Assembly: GCA_963677485.1 (NCBI GenBank)
Contig: OY781964.1
Location: 4,224,001 to 4,288,000 of the forward strand
From: Armatimonadota bacterium
GTDB lineage: Bacteria; Armatimonadota; HRBIN16
DNA: 64,000 nt
Direction of reading: 5' to 3'
The notes under the pieces: model-generated
Told to the model about the DNA's origin: nothing
Database searches by the model: none
Seen by the model: only the letters and a program-made list of their open reading frames with translations
Shown: positions 15,089 through 22,364 of the stretch, piece by piece
How the letters are laid out: each line of letters starts with the position of its first letter
Position numbering within the stretch: the stretch's first letter is position 1
Translations under genes and position numbers: made by a program

Positions 15089-17848
15089 ATGAACCTCAAA
15101 AAAAGTATCCGATTTGTATTACTACTCCTCGTAGTGATATGCAGCGTTAAGGTCGATGCACAATTCAAGCCGATTCGGGCGGATCTGCCCACTCCTAATA
15201 GTCGAATCTCCCTCCCCTTCTTTGGTGTTCGACATAATGATGCCCATGGAACTATCGGATCGCTCACTGCCCAAGCCACCGATGCATCACAGCCGCCAGT
15301 CATTGACTACTTCGCACCCCTCGGCGGGTGGGCCTATGATACAGTGAGTATCTACGGGGCAAACTTCACAGGTGTGACCGAGGTATATATTGCCAATTTC
15401 TACGCCGAATTTACGGTAGAGAACGACAATTTGATCAGTGCCTTGGTGCCCGAATACAGGGATGGGACAGGCCCTGTATCAGTGACTGGTCCTGGTGGCA
15501 CCGCGTACAGCACAGAGAATTTCACGATCTACACCTACGGGCCTATCATGACGACCACCATCGATTCATTTGAACCTGTCAGTGGACGGGTGGGCGACAC
15601 GGTCGACATCTATGGTATGGACATCACCGGTGTCAAGAATGTGGCGTTCAACAGAATGCCCGCACAGATAGTCGGATCTGAATATGGACACATTACGGCA
15701 GTAGTGCCGAAAGGAGCGACCACAGGCAAAATATCGATCGATGCCATGTACGGGCCGGCGACAAGCGAGGATGATTTTGTTGTAATTCCATCCACTCCGC
15801 CAGTTGGAGCCATCGAGATATGGGGAGGAAGTAAGCTTACACCGGGAGAGCCAAACGGGTTCACCTACATCTCAGCTGATGATCTCAGTACGATAGGTAT
15901 AGAGCGGGACGGTTCCATTGTAGGCTGGGGATCAAACTATGTTGGAATGCTCATGACTCCGTTACCGAACTCCGATTTTAGGATGGTGGCCTCAGGATGT
16001 GCGCACACTGTTGGATTGAAGAAAAATGGTAGCGTTGTATGTTGGGGCAACAACACAAGCGGACTACGCAATATCTCTGCACCAAACAAGGATTTTATAT
16101 CGATAGATGCAGGAGCGTATCATAATGCCGGTCTGAAGGCTGATGGAACCATAGTCTGTTGGGGTGGTAATGAAAATCAGCAATGTAACGTACCGTCACC
16201 AAATGCAGACTTTACGGCGGTGTCCGCTGGTTATAGTCATACAGTTGCATTAAGGAAAGATGGGTCGGTGGTATGCTGGGGTAGTAACAGCATGGGACAA
16301 TGCAGTGTGCCTTCTCCAAATGCCGATTTCGTGGCTGTATCTGCTGGCTTAAGTTATACTGTAGCTCTCAGAAAGGATGGGTCCATCACAGGTTGGGGTA
16401 ATAACGCATATGGGCAGTGTTCACCACCAGAACCGAATGTGGGATTCGTTGCGGTCTCAGCCGGGTATTATCACACAGTGGCACTTAGGGGAGATGGTTC
16501 GGTGGTTGTATTTGGTAACAATACGTACGGTCAGTGTGATATACCCAAACCAGATGGTATATACATAGCGATCTCCGCTGGTAGTGTTCATTCGGTGGCT
16601 TTAGGTAAAGACGGATCGGTGCAGTGCTGGGGGGGCAATGACAATAACCAATGTGGAGTCACACCGAATGATGACTTTACCTTAGTCAAATCGCGCGATC
16701 ATGTTACATTTGGGTTAAAAAATGACACCATTGTTTGCTTCGGAAGCAATTTAGGCAATCGAATTCATGTTCCCGAACCTAACCAAGGGTTTGTCGAAAT
16801 AGGTGTCGGGCAAGGTCACGCCGTAGGCCTGAGAAATGACGGATCAGTTGTGTGTTGGGGCGATAATTCTTTGGGTCAGTTGGATATTCCTCTACCCAAC
16901 CAGGATTTTGTGGCTATTGCCGTAGGAGCGCAGCACACACTAGCAGTGAAAAGGGACGGCACGGTTGCTGGCTGGGGTTGGAATGAATATAACCAATGCG
17001 ACATACCAGAGCCAAACCGCGCTTTTGTCGCGGTGGCCGCTGGCGATGCGCATTCGATAGGCTTGAAGGAGGACGGATCTTTAGCTCAATGGGGATATGC
17101 GTATTATTGTCAACAATATCCACTACCATCCCCAAACAGCGGCTATGTGGCCATCGCGGCAGGTGACTACCACTCGGTCGGATTGAAAAACGACGGATCG
17201 ATTGTTTGTTGGGGCTGGAACGGATTAGGCCAATGTAACGTGCCTGAACCAAATCAGGACTACATAGCTGTTGCGGCTGGCTATTCACATACTATGGGTC
17301 TCAAATGTAATGGATCGATCGTCTGTTGGGGAAGTAACAACGAAGGCCAGTGCAATATTCCTCTCCCTAACAGTGGCTTTACAGCTATAGCAGCAGGATA
17401 CAACATTTCACTGGCTATACGCAGTCTATATTCGATATCTGGGAATTTGCATCTGGACGGATATTACGGTAATCAGCTACCGGTGGAGCTGTCGGCTACC
17501 ATCAACACTACTGGGTATCCGGACATCACCCAATGTATGAGCTTGAACTCACGTAATGTCAGCGACTATCAAATCACAACCTATCTGCCGCCCCCATATG
17601 ATGTCCGCATTTTTGGATCCCATTTTCTACCCATCAAGGCGGCAAATGTTGCCGGCGGGAATATCCCCAACTTCTCCCTCGTCAACGGCGACGCCGATGG
17701 CGATGGGCAGATCAACCTGTTCGACTTCGTGGTGCTTGACTCCAACTTCGGCAAGTCGACCCCCATGGCAGACCTGAACGGAGATGGGCAGGTGAACCTG
17801 TTTGACTATGTGGTCATCGACCAGAACTTCGGAGCCAGGGGAGATTGA
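15089..17848 (+). CDS. Secreted protein: two IPT/TIG domains, 14 RCC1-like repeats and dockerin-like domain
   Basis: IDYFAPLGG..VSIYGANFTGVT and IDSFEPVSG..VDIYG IPT motifs; same repeats and C-terminus as its paralogues. Confidence 0.9.
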   Translation: MNLKKSIRFVLLLLVVICSVKVDAQFKPIRADLPTPNSRISLPFFGVRHNDAHGTIGSLTAQATDASQPPVIDYFAPLGGWAYDTVSIYGANFTGVTEVYIANFYAEFTVENDNLISALVPEYRDGTGPVSVTGPGGTAYSTENFTIYTYGPIMTTTIDSFEPVSGRVGDTVDIYGMDITGVKNVAFNRMPAQIVGSEYGHITAVVPKGATTGKISIDAMYGPATSEDDFVVIPSTPPVGAIEIWGGSKLTPGEPNGFTYISADDLSTIGIERDGSIVGWGSNYVGMLMTPLPNSDFRMVASGCAHTVGLKKNGSVVCWGNNTSGLRNISAPNKDFISIDAGAYHNAGLKADGTIVCWGGNENQQCNVPSPNADFTAVSAGYSHTVALRKDGSVVCWGSNSMGQCSVPSPNADFVAVSAGLSYTVALRKDGSITGWGNNAYGQCSPPEPNVGFVAVSAGYYHTVALRGDGSVVVFGNNTYGQCDIPKPDGIYIAISAGSVHSVALGKDGSVQCWGGNDNNQCGVTPNDDFTLVKSRDHVTFGLKNDTIVCFGSNLGNRIHVPEPNQGFVEIGVGQGHAVGLRNDGSVVCWGDNSLGQLDIPLPNQDFVAIAVGAQHTLAVKRDGTVAGWGWNEYNQCDIPEPNRAFVAVAAGDAHSIGLKEDGSLAQWGYAYYCQQYPLPSPNSGYVAIAAGDYHSVGLKNDGSIVCWGWNGLGQCNVPEPNQDYIAVAAGYSHTMGLKCNGSIVCWGSNNEGQCNIPLPNSGFTAIAAGYNISLAIRSLYSISGNLHLDGYYGNQLPVELSATINTTGYPDITQCMSLNSRNVSDYQITTYLPPPYDVRIFGSHFLPIKAANVAGGNIPNFSLVNGDADGDGQINLFDFVVLDSNFGKSTPMADLNGDGQVNLFDYVVIDQNFGARGD

Positions 17849-18284
17849 ACCCAACATCGCACCCGTCTATCAAATATACATAACATGTCGAAACGTTTGG
17901 TATTTTGCGGTTCTGCTCTCGGTTAGTACCCTGTGCCGTCATGTTCAAAGATGGGCAACTGGAACCATCGATTCCTTGGGGGGTGATGCGCCTGGCTCCA
18001 GGTGTCCGGTCAGAATATGTTCCATAGCTGCCCGCGGCAGCCAAATAATTGGTCTTTAATAGGATGTTTCCATAGTCTGCTGGGGTGACAATAAATACGG
18101 TCAGCTCGATGTGCCTGTTCCTAACAGCGGATTTTTGGTTATTGATGCCGATCAAACATATCATGCGGACTGAGAGCAGTTGGATCCGTTGTGTGTTGGA
18201 GCGATAGACTTGATAGACAGTGCGATGTTCCCACACCAAATCCAGATTACCTGTTTTTGGGCCCTGCACTCTACCACATATTAG

Positions 18285-19940
18285 TATCTTACCAACCATA
18301 TTTTGAACACGGTGTATAGAATATTCTGATATTACGCACCACACAAAGCGTTAGGCACAACGATCTGGCGAATAGCAAGTGCTGCCATGATGATACGCTT
18401 GCCAAGTGCAGTGAGGTAGTATTTGTAGCGTTTACCGCATTTTTTAACGAGCCGGAATACTCGGCATCGCTTGATGAAGTATGATATCTGAGAGCTGGAC
18501 ATCTGCGGTAAGGCTTTTTGAAGCATACGGTTTGTGATCCCGCTGATGCATCCCTCTCCGCGAGCAAGTGCAATGAGACATTCCAAATCCTTCTTGAGGA
18601 AAAGGTTGAATCCTCGATACGAGCGATGATCACGGGTGGTCGAGGTCGCGATTTTGATGATCTGATGTTCACCATCGCTGTTGTCATCAAGGGCGGAAAG
18701 AAAGTCAAGATATCTGTTGTTTGCAGATAATAACAGTTCCCTCAATGGAGGAAGGCTGTAGATGGTCTTTTGCATAGGGGCGTATTTAATCTCAGTCGTC
18801 CCATCATGATGTTCTACCTCACGGTAGTGTTTAAATTCAGAGACGTCATTCACAGTCGTCTCGATACGCAAGATTATCCCTTGCTTGTCATACATTTTGA
18901 TAGAAGCCCATCCCATGTAGTGTTTGATGCGCGTGCCTTGTATGCGGCGATCGAACTTGTAGTCAGTGCCGATCTCAGCGAGTGTTCGCCCATCAAGTTT
19001 CTTACCAAGAAACATCGCGATAGACTCTGGCGTTACCGTATGTATCGCTGTTTTGACTAGATTATCGTAGATGGCTTTGAGGTCTTCGGCGCGTTTGAAC
19101 ACGATGTCTGTAGCATATTCCACCTGCATTAGCGACCAATGATATGAATTGTCAGCAAGCCGTATCACGGGGCAATACATTCTGGCAAATGCATCCAGCG
19201 CATGGTGCAGCTTATCAGCAGGAAAAGCGTCTGCCAGCCTCTGAGCACAGCTAAAGTCGTCGATTTTTACAAAGGCGTTGTCCAGTGGAGTGAAAACTAC
19301 TCCCTCGGATTGAAGGCAATGCGCGAGATAATTGTGTCCATTACAATAGAATTGCAGACGGAAGGGCACCCAGGTCGGAACTCGTAGATAGCACAGTCCA
19401 AACTCTGCATCGATGAAATAGAAGTAGTAATGAAGACACTTGGTCTCCTTGATATTCAGCCGGGTTTTGTGGGTAATCTTGTCGTGCCACGGGGTGTATG
19501 CAGGACATTTTTCCAACACTGAGAATATGTGGACGAGACCGGGGTGACACCCTCGACTACTAATGATCTCTTTGATGCGGTCTTCTTTTCGAAATGAAGA
19601 GGCACGGCGTATATACTCAATTTCAATGCTGTTGGTAACGGCAAGGCGTTCCGCATTGGCTTTGATCTCATCTCGTAGAGGTTCGGCAAATTCCTTAGGA
19701 AAGTCAAATAGCCTGATGTTGCGTTGATGAAGATAGATGCCCATTCCGTCGCTATGACACCAGCCTGGGATTGTACCGGTGATAACTATGCGGTCGAAGC
19801 ATGAATATACCCCAGCTATCTGCTTTGCATAGCGTTCTTGAAGTGATGTCATTCTGGGCAACCTCACGAAAGGGTGTTTGAATGTATATTACGTGGCGAA
19901 TGCAATCATTCCTTTTTTGGTTGCGGCTAAGCCGCCTTAG
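18285..19940 (-). mobile_element. 1656-bp single-ORF insertion element bounded by TTAG, without terminal inverted repeats
   Basis: TTAG at 18281-18284 and 19937-19940; deleting the element restores an RCC1 repeat in frame; hairpin gcggc-taa-gccgc at 19923-19935. Confidence 0.88.
18332..19852 (-). CDS. Putative transposase with Rep_trans-like motifs and C-terminal winged helix
   Basis: Only long ORF of the element; CLHYYFYFID, QVEYATD, SIKMYDK..LRIETT; C-terminal ITNRML..RYKYYLTALG wHTH; GAGGT RBS before ATG 19852. Confidence 0.7.
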   Translation of the reverse strand: MTSLQERYAKQIAGVYSCFDRIVITGTIPGWCHSDGMGIYLHQRNIRLFDFPKEFAEPLRDEIKANAERLAVTNSIEIEYIRRASSFRKEDRIKEIISSRGCHPGLVHIFSVLEKCPAYTPWHDKITHKTRLNIKETKCLHYYFYFIDAEFGLCYLRVPTWVPFRLQFYCNGHNYLAHCLQSEGVVFTPLDNAFVKIDDFSCAQRLADAFPADKLHHALDAFARMYCPVIRLADNSYHWSLMQVEYATDIVFKRAEDLKAIYDNLVKTAIHTVTPESIAMFLGKKLDGRTLAEIGTDYKFDRRIQGTRIKHYMGWASIKMYDKQGIILRIETTVNDVSEFKHYREVEHHDGTTEIKYAPMQKTIYSLPPLRELLLSANNRYLDFLSALDDNSDGEHQIIKIATSTTRDHRSYRGFNLFLKKDLECLIALARGEGCISGITNRMLQKALPQMSSSQISYFIKRCRVFRLVKKCGKRYKYYLTALGKRIIMAALAIRQIVVPNALCGA

Positions 19941-20003
19941 GACTGAAGTGTGACGGCTCCATCGTCCATTGGGGCAACATTTAAGACCAGCAGGATGATG
20001 TAT

Positions 20004-20030
20004 CGGAGCGGGTCTAGATAAGCCAGAATG
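20004..20030 (+). repeat. 27-bp exact direct repeat, copy 2 (copy 1 at 12535-12561)
   Basis: Identical to 12535-12561. Confidence 0.9.
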
Positions 20031-20225
20031 AGGATTCGTGGGCTCCATATTATGATGTGCTCATGACAGCAATAATGCTTGATTATGCCCACATCGAGTT
20101 CACAGTGCATGATTTCTATTGATATAGCCATCTCCTGTCGGGTACATGTAAGGGCATAAGTGATCAGCGGTGAGGACCAACCAGTGCTAGACAAGTGTGT
20201 GAGCCCTAGATGATGGAGGCATAAC

Positions 20226-22364
20226 ATGAAACACACGATAGCCGTATTCTGTAGAAGCATGGTCAGGTGGGGCATCTGGCTTTTGATGCTGGTTTGCAGT
20301 GTCTATAGCTTTGCCCTGACGGGCACAATAGAAGGTTGGGGATCTAATTGCACAGCACCTGGTGATATGAGTGGCTTTATATCAGTTTCAGCAGGTGCCA
20401 TGCACTCCGCAGGGGTAAAACACGATGGGTCGGTAGTGTGTTGGAGATACAACCACGACCGCCAATGTAATGTGCCAGCACCCAATAGTAACTTCGTGGC
20501 GGTCTCCGCAGGTTTTTACCACACAGTAGGACTGAAGAATGACGGCTCGGTTGTTTGCTGGGGCAGCAACCAGCAGGAGCAGTGCAATGGGCCATCACCT
20601 AACAGCGGGTTCACGGCTGTTTCGACTGGCACCTACTATTCTGCAGGCCTGAAGAGTGACGGCAGCATTGTTTGCTGGGGCAATGCCGCCTATGGTGAGT
20701 GTAGTGTGCCTGCACCCAACAGCGACTTCGTCGCCATTTCTGCAGGTCCCGAGTTCATGGTTGGTCTGAAGCACGACGGCTCCGTGGTCTGCTGGGGAAA
20801 TAACGCAAAAGGCCAATGCAGTGTTCCTTCTCCGAATAGCGGATTTATCGGAATATCGGCAGGAGTCAACCATGCCGCTGGCTTGAAAAGTGATAGCTCG
20901 ATCGTGTGTTGGGGCCTGAACACCGATGGTCAGTGCAGCGTTCCGTCACCGAACAGCAGTTTTATAGCGGTTGCGGCCAGTAAATACCATACATCGGGAT
21001 TGAAGACTGACGGCTCGATCGTGTGTTGGGGCTGGAACGGTGATGGCGGATGCAATGTTCCCGCACCCAACGGCAACTTTACCGCCATATCGGGAGGTGA
21101 CTATCATACGGCAGGACTTAAGCGGGATGGTTCTCTGGTATTCTGGGCATGGAATGACGATGGTCAGTGCAACATGCTTGCACCTAACAGCGGATTTATC
21201 GCCGTTTCGGCAGGATATCATTCTGCCGGGTTGAAACAAGATGGCTCGGTGGTTTGTTGGGGATGGAACACATATGGTCAGTGTGTTGTGCCAGCTCCCA
21301 ACAGCGAGTTCATTGCCCTCTCATCTGGATACGCCCATACAATCGGCTTGAAAAGTGATGGCTCTGTCATCTGTTGGGGCGATAACTCATATGGTCAACG
21401 CCAGGTACCGGCGCCCAACAGCGGGTTTAGCTATATATCTGCAGGAATCAACCATAACGCCGGGGTTAAAACTGACGGATCAGTGGTCTGCTGGGGCTCG
21501 AATTCGTCGTCTCAGTGCTCTGTGCCCTCACCCAACAGCGGATTTATGGCGGTCTCCGCAGGCGACAGCCATACGGTAGGTTTGAAAACTGATGGAACGG
21601 TGGTCTGCTGGGGAGCCAACACGTCAGGGCAGTGTAGCGTACCGGCTCCGAACAGCGGCTTCACAGCGGTTGCAGCGGGGACAAGCCATTCTGCTGGACT
21701 GAAGAACGACGGATCTATTGTCTGCTGGGGATCAAACGCATTCGGTCAATGCACCGTACCAGCTCCTAACAGCGGCTTTACTTCCGTGTCAGCAGGAATT
21801 AGTAATACTGTCGGTTTGAAGAGTGACGGTTCGATCATCTGTTGGGGACTTGATGGGCATGGCCAATGTGCGGTACCGACACCAAACAGCGGATTTGCAG
21901 GTATTTCTGCTGGGGCTTACATTATTGAAGGCATTCGTACTCAGCATTCGGTGTCTGGTGCAGCCCATCTGGGTAACTTCGTGGGCGATGTCACTCATCA
22001 ACAGCTTGTGGCGTCCATCAGCAGCACGGCTAACCCGAGTAACTCGCAGTGCCTGAGCTTTTCGCCACAGATCGACGGAAGTTTTCTGATCAACAGTGCC
22101 ATCAGTCCTCCGTTGCAGGTCTTGATTAGCTGTCAGCATTTCTTGCGGCTCAAAATCCCCAATTTCGATCCATCAAACAGCATGAACTTCACGCTGGTCA
22201 ACGGTGATTCTGATGGTGAAGGACAGATCAACCTGTTCGACTTCGTGGTGCTCGATATGCACTTCGGGTCTTCGGACAGTATGGCAGACCTGGACGGCAA
22301 CGGGCACGTGAATCTGTTCGACTACGTGGTCATCGACAAAAACTTCGGAGCTAAAGCCGACTAA
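20226..22364 (+). CDS. Secreted RCC1/BLIP-II-like repeat protein (14 repeats) with C-terminal dockerin-like domain
   Basis: Same architecture as 12771-14942; GGAGG RBS. Confidence 0.9.
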   Translation: MKHTIAVFCRSMVRWGIWLLMLVCSVYSFALTGTIEGWGSNCTAPGDMSGFISVSAGAMHSAGVKHDGSVVCWRYNHDRQCNVPAPNSNFVAVSAGFYHTVGLKNDGSVVCWGSNQQEQCNGPSPNSGFTAVSTGTYYSAGLKSDGSIVCWGNAAYGECSVPAPNSDFVAISAGPEFMVGLKHDGSVVCWGNNAKGQCSVPSPNSGFIGISAGVNHAAGLKSDSSIVCWGLNTDGQCSVPSPNSSFIAVAASKYHTSGLKTDGSIVCWGWNGDGGCNVPAPNGNFTAISGGDYHTAGLKRDGSLVFWAWNDDGQCNMLAPNSGFIAVSAGYHSAGLKQDGSVVCWGWNTYGQCVVPAPNSEFIALSSGYAHTIGLKSDGSVICWGDNSYGQRQVPAPNSGFSYISAGINHNAGVKTDGSVVCWGSNSSSQCSVPSPNSGFMAVSAGDSHTVGLKTDGTVVCWGANTSGQCSVPAPNSGFTAVAAGTSHSAGLKNDGSIVCWGSNAFGQCTVPAPNSGFTSVSAGISNTVGLKSDGSIICWGLDGHGQCAVPTPNSGFAGISAGAYIIEGIRTQHSVSGAAHLGNFVGDVTHQQLVASISSTANPSNSQCLSFSPQIDGSFLINSAISPPLQVLISCQHFLRLKIPNFDPSNSMNFTLVNGDSDGEGQINLFDFVVLDMHFGSSDSMADLDGNGHVNLFDYVVIDKNFGAKAD

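Follow-up and report, generated by a model that had tools for sequence, protein, structure and literature searches.

The DNA analysed here, called the window throughout, is a stretch of 64,000 nucleotides from an Armatimonadota bacterium (assembly GCA_963677485.1, contig OY781964.1, positions 4,224,001 to 4,288,000 of the forward strand), and coordinates below are positions in the window unless a contig or locus is named. The window contains a one-gene insertion element bounded by the tetranucleotide TTAG, which is found at 18281-18284 and again at 19937-19940. An earlier note on this DNA, made from the sequence alone, had described a true insertion with both ends known to the base. Excision of 18285-19940 by script bore this out, as the flanks fused into a single open frame (...DVPTPNPDYLFLGPALYHILGLKCDGSIVHWGNI and a stop) as the note had written it; after in-silico removal of the unit the host frame reads ...PNPDYLFLGPALYHILGLKCDGSIVHWGNI up to its stop. 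The interrupted frame is what remains of a decayed gene for RCC1-like repeats and contains stops and frameshifts upstream. Counted without either TTAG, the insert is 1652 bp long, and the mobile unit, which includes one TTAG, measures 1656 bp (18285-19940), the size that the note had given.

A single open reading frame (ORF) on the minus strand (18332-19852) makes up 92% of the unit and encodes 506 amino acids (aa) from an ATG, or 511 aa from a GTG further upstream. Read on the strand of the ORF, the unit is 5'-CTAA, a hairpin, the gene and, at the other end, GGTAAGATA-3'. A repeat search of the termini found no inverted repeat joining the two ends, so that the note was right on this point as well as on the 506-aa ORF that fills the element. 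The features of the unit are as follows.

18281..18284, no strand: target-derived tetranucleotide TTAG (CTAA on the ORF strand), outside the element; varies among near-identical copies.
18285..19940, minus strand: mobile unit of 1656 bp; 22 copies with unrelated flanks, and removal restores one frame.
18285..18293, minus strand: subterminal motif at the ORF-distal end; the ORF strand reads GGTAAGATA, and the consensus of the family is GTAAGGGA; from cross-phylum loci.
18332..19852, minus strand: gene for the 506-aa protein, presumed transposase; sole long ORF of the unit, intact in 22/22 copies.
18335..18682, minus strand: codons about 391-506, MarR/HxlR-like winged helix-turn-helix; from structure, profile and Pfam matches.
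18683..19852, minus strand: codons 1-390, double TBP-like (Rep_trans-like) domain, presumed catalytic part; from the AlphaFold model and structure matches.
18890..18892, minus strand: codon of Y321 in K-M-Y-D-K, presumed catalytic tyrosine; invariant in 70/70 sequences.
19913..19922, minus strand: AACCAAAAAA box adjoining the hairpin, family consensus AACCAAAC; from 38 distinct end sequences.
19923..19935, no strand: subterminal hairpin GCGGC-TAA-GCCGC, one base from the element's own TTAG; predicted on both strands.
19937..19940, no strand: element-borne TTAG (CTAA on the ORF strand), with the exchange point directly after it, TTAG^G; 22/22 copies.

Copies and target site in the source genome

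The source genome is a single contig of 5.22 Mb, in which the unit (1660 bases when both TTAGs are included) recurs 22 times at 99.2-100% identity. For 21 of the copies identity is 99.9-100%, and one copy stands at 99.2%. The flanking DNA is different at each of the 22 copies, and the ORF is intact in all of them. The element is thus an autonomous, recently active, multi-copy insertion sequence (IS). Single-copy homologues with conserved gene neighbourhoods, which the earlier note had named as evidence to the contrary, were not what was found, as the 22 copies here and the 7 and 47 matches in two other genomes have unrelated flanks. None of the 30 related genomes searched has the protein, two genomes of the same genus included. 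Three metagenome runs carry the element with a few base differences in their assembled contigs. The sequencing-run contigs contained no empty site and no end-to-start junction, and no RNA sequencing runs carrying the element were listed; these results count neither for nor against. Copies also lie within 0.5 kb of each contig end (G000 C1, 391-2050 and 5217907-5219566), and the start point of the assembly may have been set in or near a repeat.

The two flanking tetranucleotides behave differently. Read along the window, 22/22 copies have TTAG as their right tetramer, followed by G; the left tetramer is TTAG in 17, ATAG in 4 and TTAA in 1. For substitution statistics the one diverged copy was set aside. 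The 21 near-identical copies differ from one another at 4/84 nt of the left tetramer, 1/34,692 nt of the interior and 0/84 nt of the right tetramer (left tetramer vs. interior, Fisher p = 1.6e-10). Since the left tetramer varies while the interior is all but constant, the left one is target-derived and the right one element-borne. The earlier note had left open whether TTAG was an invariant core site or a variable 4-bp duplication. Invariance was confirmed for the hairpin side (22/22); the far side varies in 5/22 copies, so the pair is not identical and the two TTAGs are not a target duplication. Insertion takes place at C^CTAA as read on the ORF strand, which is TTAG^G on the opposite one, and CTAT and TTAA are tolerated. 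In the flanks outside C^CTAA, G is never found at positions -2 and +1. For one ATAG copy the flanking DNA had no match in the 30 relatives, so that this search gave no orthologous empty site, and the target origin of the variant tetramers rests on the statistics.

Spread and conserved ends of the family

Relatives of the protein numbered at least 7998 among 8000 scored candidates; 6547 clusters at 50% identity matched at E <= 1e-3, and 659 did so at E <= 1e-30. Most relatives are on contigs of 1.6-2.5 kb, as expected of collapsed repeats. Eighty loci were fetched, from more than 10 phyla: Chloroflexota, Acidobacteriota, Nitrospirota, Planctomycetota, Desulfobacterota, Pseudomonadota, Bacillota, Bacteroidota, Armatimonadota, Gemmatimonadota and others. 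The element is multi-copy elsewhere too, with 7 matches in genome G002 and 47 in the alphaproteobacterial genome G003, both unrelated to the source, and in single genomes the element reaches 22 to about 40 copies. Distant relatives at 22-25% identity, matching over nearly the full length and annotated as hypothetical, occur on megaplasmids of Rhodococcus, Burkholderia, Paraburkholderia and Mycobacterium.

Both ends of the unit are conserved across the family. The ORF-upstream end, recognizable in 52/61 loci, is composed of C[T/C]AA, one base, a G+C stem of 4-5 bp, a loop of 3-5 nt and the box AACCAAA. The hairpin stem pairs in 92.6% of cells, as compared with 4-38% in slid registers, compensatory changes were seen in 2/5 stem pairs (7 cells), and the score was matched by 0/500 shuffles. 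The box has three invariant positions, A20, C21 and C22, and conservation is 90% or above at A19 and A23-A25 (38 distinct end sequences). At the ORF-downstream end, 47/61 loci from many phyla have a GTAAGGGA-type motif, of which GTAAGGGA itself is the commonest form (13/47), followed by a tetramer beginning with CT. This tetramer is CTAA in 37 of the 47, CTAT, CTAG and CTAC in 2 each and something else in 4, a tally in which a few matches (CTTT, CTTC, CTGT) may be false.

The target rule was also readable in other members. Among 21 distinct copies in G003, the hairpin-side tetramer is CTAA in 21/21, and the base before it is C in 19 and A in 2, the latter both within tandem arrays; the far-side tetramer is CTAA in 20 and CTAT in 1. 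A subfamily of 11 loci (L044, L045, L047, L058, L059, L070-L072, L075, L077 and L091) has CCAA as its hairpin-side tetramer, and at the far end of its nine readable loci the tetramer is CTAA in 8 and CTAC in 1. The difference between CCAA on the hairpin side and CTAA on the far side fits an element-borne near tetramer and a target-derived far tetramer. None of five genomes tried was a multi-copy genome of the CCAA subfamily.

G003 further harbors a mini-element of 235 nt that is non-coding and retains both conserved ends. It stands alone at two sites, once as C|CTAA...GAGA|CTAC and once with CTAA (L164 1501-1738; L166 about 1500-1705), and there obeys the boundary rule of the full copies. In the same genome, mini and full elements are joined head to tail as mini-full-mini-full, with a single CTAA at each joint (L099 826-4539). 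At another locus (L036) an element abuts a tandem array of GTACCTAA units, from about 4560, each of which contains the target motif CCTAA.

Fold and candidate active site of the protein

Sequence searches did not assign the protein to any transposase family. Against Pfam, the 506-aa protein matched 0 families at E <= 1. No transposase model in Pfam, NCBIfam (release 20) or PHROGs matched it, DDE, DEDD, Transposase_20 and HUH models included, nothing explanatory was found in PDB sequences, and a protein atlas returned unnamed clusters only. A profile search of the PDB yielded weak winged-helix matches, e.g. MarR 3bj6 at E = 0.017. When Pfam was run on 70 members, winged-helix families alone were hit (HVO_A0261_N in 31 and HTH_45 in 14). 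The whole source genome had no PF02486 match at E <= 10. The database names of relatives are 'hypothetical protein', 'MarR family' and 'ArsR family transcriptional regulator'; the first two are the labels that the earlier note had named. The element had no Rfam match at E <= 1, and a promoter scan of it did not rise above shuffles.

An alignment of 70 sequences, reaching down to 28% identity, gave 15 residues invariant in 70/70: D20, R21, G105, Y143, Y145, G152, P163, N171, N192, E245, F252, K319, Y321, R329 and E331. D249 and K323 are conserved at 90% or above. The tyrosine of the MYDK motif, on which the catalytic proposal of the earlier note depended, is Y321 and is thus among the invariant residues. 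The first TBP-like repeat contains Y143, Y145, N171 and N192 (window about 19277-19426, minus strand), for which Rep_trans offers no assignable counterpart; a second invariant tyrosine could matter for a two-tyrosine mechanism.

The AlphaFold model has a predicted local distance difference test score of 94.0 for the whole protein and 96.3 for residues 1-390, and consists of a double TBP-like domain followed by a C-terminal MarR-like winged helix. The winged helix that the note had proposed is real: residues 390-506 match many winged-helix regulators of the MarR/HxlR type with Z 8-10.3. Residues 1-390 were searched against 48,161 chains. Ranks 1-3 were TBPs (Z 8.5, 8.2 and 8.2; 176-178 residues aligned), followed by RepSTK1 (4cij_A, Z 7.0, 194 residues aligned, root-mean-square deviation (rmsd) 4.9) and RepDE (4cwc_A, Z 7.0, 179 residues aligned, rmsd 5.6), so that TBP and Rep_trans proteins fill ranks 1-5. 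In Foldseek searches of the PDB, RepDE and RepSTK1 appeared at E about 4e-3 to 1.3e-2 with probability 0.72-0.95. Against viral models, Foldseek gave 20 matches at E <= 1e-3, TBPs and inovirus proteins, among them the inovirus protein A0A345MNV4 at E = 7.8e-5. The latter is an initiator carrying PF02486, according to PMC13107129. Among the structural matches listed there was no RNase H-like transposase or integrase, the sole RNase H entry being Aquifex RNase H3 at rank 47 with Z 4.8. The earlier note had seen no DDE, HUH, recombinase or DEDD identity in the protein, in keeping with a fold that is neither RNase H/DDE nor HUH. Its proposal of a Rep_trans-like protein stood at the level of fold, and the comparison of sequence profiles was null.

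The candidate active site was compared with that of RepDE, for which Carr et al. (PMC4797284) give Y191, R189 and K193 as active-site residues and D46, D142 and E214, each on its own strand, as metal ligands; D9, D116 and E196 are the equivalent ligands of RepSTK1 in the same paper. In the element protein, K319-x-Y321-x-K323, R329-x-E331, E245-x-x-x-D249 and D20 are distributed over four separate strands of the prediction, and their order is that of RepDE (D20 on strand 12-27, E245 on 238-252, K319, Y321 and K323 on 316-323, and E331 on 327-334). In the structural alignments the first pairs are model residue 13 = RepDE 39 and model residue 12 = RepSTK1 1, so that D20, if the first strand is read ungapped, falls on D46 of RepDE and D9 of RepSTK1. 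At the level of motif, K-M-Y-D-K corresponds to R189-Y191-K193 of RepDE and to RIYNK of pT181 RepC, both of the form [R/K]-x-Y-x-K. Rep_trans proteins from pT181 and ten other genomes have RLDLAFD-type motifs (R-x-D-x-A-x-D), [RK]xYxK and RxE in this same order. From the model and the conserved residues, Y321 is presumed to be catalytic and D20, E245/D249 and E331 to bind metal. The protein is not a member of PF02486; judged by its predicted structure, it probably has the Rep_trans fold and works in the same way.

Proposed mechanism, alternatives and novelty

The single protein of the element is presumed to be its transposase, and the best reading of the data, which we hold with somewhat more than even confidence, is that this transposase is a Rep_trans-like tyrosine nuclease. 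The winged helix would probably bind the conserved end, i.e. the hairpin and the AACCAAA box, and the tyrosine would nick one strand at both CTAA boundaries. A single-stranded unit would then be freed or copied out and its ends joined as GATA-CTAA-hairpin; this junction would be cut again and inserted at a target CTAA, with the second, complementary strand made by the host. The overall scheme would be peel-and-paste or a rolling-circle-like copy-out, and the element would stand to the Rep_trans fold as the transposons IS200/IS605 and IS91 stand to HUH. That the family adds a catalytic class to the prokaryotic transposases, namely a TBP-fold tyrosine nuclease akin to Rep_trans, fused to a winged helix and carrying out single-strand transposition into C^CTAA, we put at slightly better than an even chance. 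A guide-pairing idea was also considered, in which the loop CTAAG of this copy, complementary to the cut site, would pair with the tetranucleotide; it was dropped, as the loop is not conserved in other members.

Several results weigh against a Rep_trans-like nickase. TBP, which is not an enzyme, outscores the Rep_trans structures (Z 8.5 vs. 7.0), values of 7-8 are middling by the search tool's own scale, and Foldseek found no match in the PDB at E <= 1e-3. At the sequence level, none of the 70 members matched PF02486 or PF25227 at E <= 10, and hhalign against Rep_trans gave probabilities of 0.26% (6-sequence alignment) and 1.3% (12-sequence alignment), both from small Rep_trans alignments. PF02486 proteins were found in 4/151 and 8/401 sampled genomes, and the set obtained by searching with pT181 RepC was of little use, nearly all its members being more than 86% identical. 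Compensatory pairs in the hairpin are few (2/5), and its loop of 3-5 nt leaves no cut within the loop as in pT181. Finally, GC skew puts the origin at about 2.15 Mb and the terminus at about 4.75 Mb, and relative to replication 15/22 copies have the same orientation (p = 0.13), whereas IS200/IS605 elements are strongly biased.

The first of the alternatives holds that the same new IS moves as double-stranded DNA, its CTAA junction recombining with a target CTAA in the manner of IS110/IS1111 or IS607, with the TBP-fold protein as a new recombinase and not a nickase. We regard this as unlikely, though it accounts for a good deal: the 4-nt core common to junction and target, the lack of duplication and inverted repeats, the head-to-tail arrays with one core per joint, and the want of a strong replication-strand bias (15/22). 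Against it, the variant tetramer is on the same side in 6/6 full-length copies (binomial p = 0.03) and in one mini-element. A variant that is always on the same side places the exchange point outside the core, which argues against a staggered double-strand exchange of the core. The two ends of CCAA-subfamily members moreover differ from each other as a rule, and the nearest enzymes by fold are single-strand nickases.

A second alternative, also unlikely in our estimate and ranked just below the first, is that the likeness to Rep_trans reflects a shared TBP-like scaffold used for other chemistry, for instance that of a hydrolytic metal nuclease without a covalent tyrosine or one with a 3'-phosphotyrosine link; the element would still found a new IS family. 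The rank of TBP above Rep_trans in the structure search, the missing sequence-profile signal to Rep_trans and the invariant Y143, Y145, N171 and N192, which the nickase scheme does not explain, speak for such a scaffold. What stands against it is the RepDE/RepSTK1 pattern itself, with invariant K-x-Y-x-K and R-x-E on neighbouring strands, an invariant Asp on the first strand and an invariant Glu on a middle strand.

It is very improbable that the protein is merely a MarR/ArsR-type regulator and that an enzyme from another locus moves the repeat. The database names 'MarR family' and 'ArsR family transcriptional regulator' suggest such a role and the winged helix is genuine, but the ORF is accompanied by the same pair of conserved ends in more than 10 phyla, takes up 92% of the unit, is intact in 22/22 copies and encodes a 390-residue domain with an invariant Tyr and acids that no regulator needs. 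An ordinary DDE-type IS duplicating a 4-bp TTAG target, to which the TTAG at both ends of the window copy might point, is refuted by tetramers that differ in 5/22 copies, by the lack of terminal inverted repeats and by the TBP-like fold, with no match to a DDE model and no RNase H-like transposase or integrase among the structural matches listed.

Among known transposons, IS200/IS605 elements move by single-strand peel-and-paste with an HUH Y1 transposase of about 150 aa and show a strong replication-strand bias. The present element resembles them in the absence of inverted repeats and duplication, in a fixed tetra- or pentanucleotide site with a related tetranucleotide at its own end, in a subterminal hairpin and in short non-coding derivatives. 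It differs in that its protein has a TBP-like and not an HUH/RRM fold, has no HUH motif and is 506 aa long rather than about 150, that a hairpin is seen at one end only and that any strand bias is weak (15/22, p = 0.13). With IS91/ISCR and the Helitrons (HUH Y2 or Y1) it shares a single ORF of similar size, the absence of inverted repeats and duplication, a tetranucleotide preference and a hairpin near one end; the nuclease fold is another, and the protein has no HUH Y2 match. IS91-like read-through capture of flanks was seen in none of the 22 + 21 copies, all of which end precisely. IS110/IS1111 elements likewise have no duplication and no terminal repeats, and a short core is common to donor and target. 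Those elements encode a DEDD enzyme and a bridge or seeker RNA, whereas the element has neither DEDD domains nor an Rfam RNA, and its family keeps one tetranucleotide target across phyla in place of element-specific targets.

The nearest likeness by fold is to Rep_trans (PF02486), i.e. pT181 RepC/RepD, RepSTK1 and MOBT relaxases such as NicK of ICEBs1 and RelSt3 of ICESt3. Both have a crescent-shaped TBP-like double domain (Z 7.0), a strand-borne Tyr within [R/K]-x-Y-x-K, acids that lie, in the element protein by prediction, on separate strands, a separate DNA-binding domain and a G+C hairpin next to where the protein acts. The stem CCGGC/GCCGG of ICRII of pT181 (L103 4359-4378) is also the commonest stem of the hairpin in the element family, which may be chance; the pT181 loop has 10 nt and holds the nick site, whereas the family loop has 3-5 nt. 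The element protein further differs from Rep_trans in having no sequence-level match and about 130 extra residues, and in being encoded by a 1.66-kb chromosomal repeat with defined ends and not by a plasmid, phage or conjugative element.

A precedent for so distant a relationship is Rep-Arvir (DUF7845, PF25227), in which, as PMC13107129 describes it, an N-terminal TBP-fold nuclease is joined to a MarR-like winged helix and the link to Rep_trans is visible by structure only. That paper, of 2026, presents Rep-Arvir as an archaea-exclusive initiator of viruses, plasmids and integrative elements, and Rep_trans as previously thought to be confined to bacterial mobile elements, namely plasmids, filamentous phages and conjugative transposons (PMC13107129). 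The element protein has the same layout, TBP-like in residues 1-390 and MarR/HxlR-like in 390-506, and the catalytic set E25, D207, Y283 and E303 given there for Rep-Arvir has the same order as D20, E245, Y321 and E331 here. It differs in that the element family is bacterial and resides in an insertion sequence, and in having no PF25227 match at E <= 10.

In the open-access literature and bioRxiv we found no account of a Rep_trans- or TBP-fold transposase or of this element (ISfinder, subscription journals and supplements were outside the scope of this search), and the family is absent from the catalogues searched (Pfam, NCBIfam and PHROGs). It probably forms a class of bacterial transposon that has gone unrecognised. 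Transposons are classed by transposase chemistry and fold as DDE, DEDD, HUH tyrosine, tyrosine and serine recombinases, and Cas1, and a Rep_trans/TBP-fold transposase, if confirmed, would add a class to this list. HUH nucleases are known as initiators, relaxases and transposases, and the Rep_trans superfamily would, on the same proviso, gain a third lifestyle; for Rep_trans nucleases, the known roles are those of initiator and relaxase only (PMC4797284, PMC6499999, PMC13107129). Should the reading be true, its more than 6500 clusters at 50% identity would make the family one of the larger among those transposon families that are still annotated as regulators or hypothetical proteins. Because annotation pipelines label the protein a MarR/ArsR regulator or hypothetical, annotations miss the insertions and the gene disruptions that they cause. 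The element is directly testable, being small and having one protein, seamless insertion at a short defined site, ends known to the base and a natural 235-nt mini-element, and it is a possible DNA-insertion tool.

The genes on either side of the element encode two RCC1-like repeat proteins of 919 aa and 712 aa (window 15089-17848 and 20226-22364). Both look secreted and have a C-terminal, dockerin-like pair of the motif DxDGDGxINLFDF. Between these two intact genes is a decayed third RCC1-like paralogue at 17849-20225, and the element sits inside this relic.

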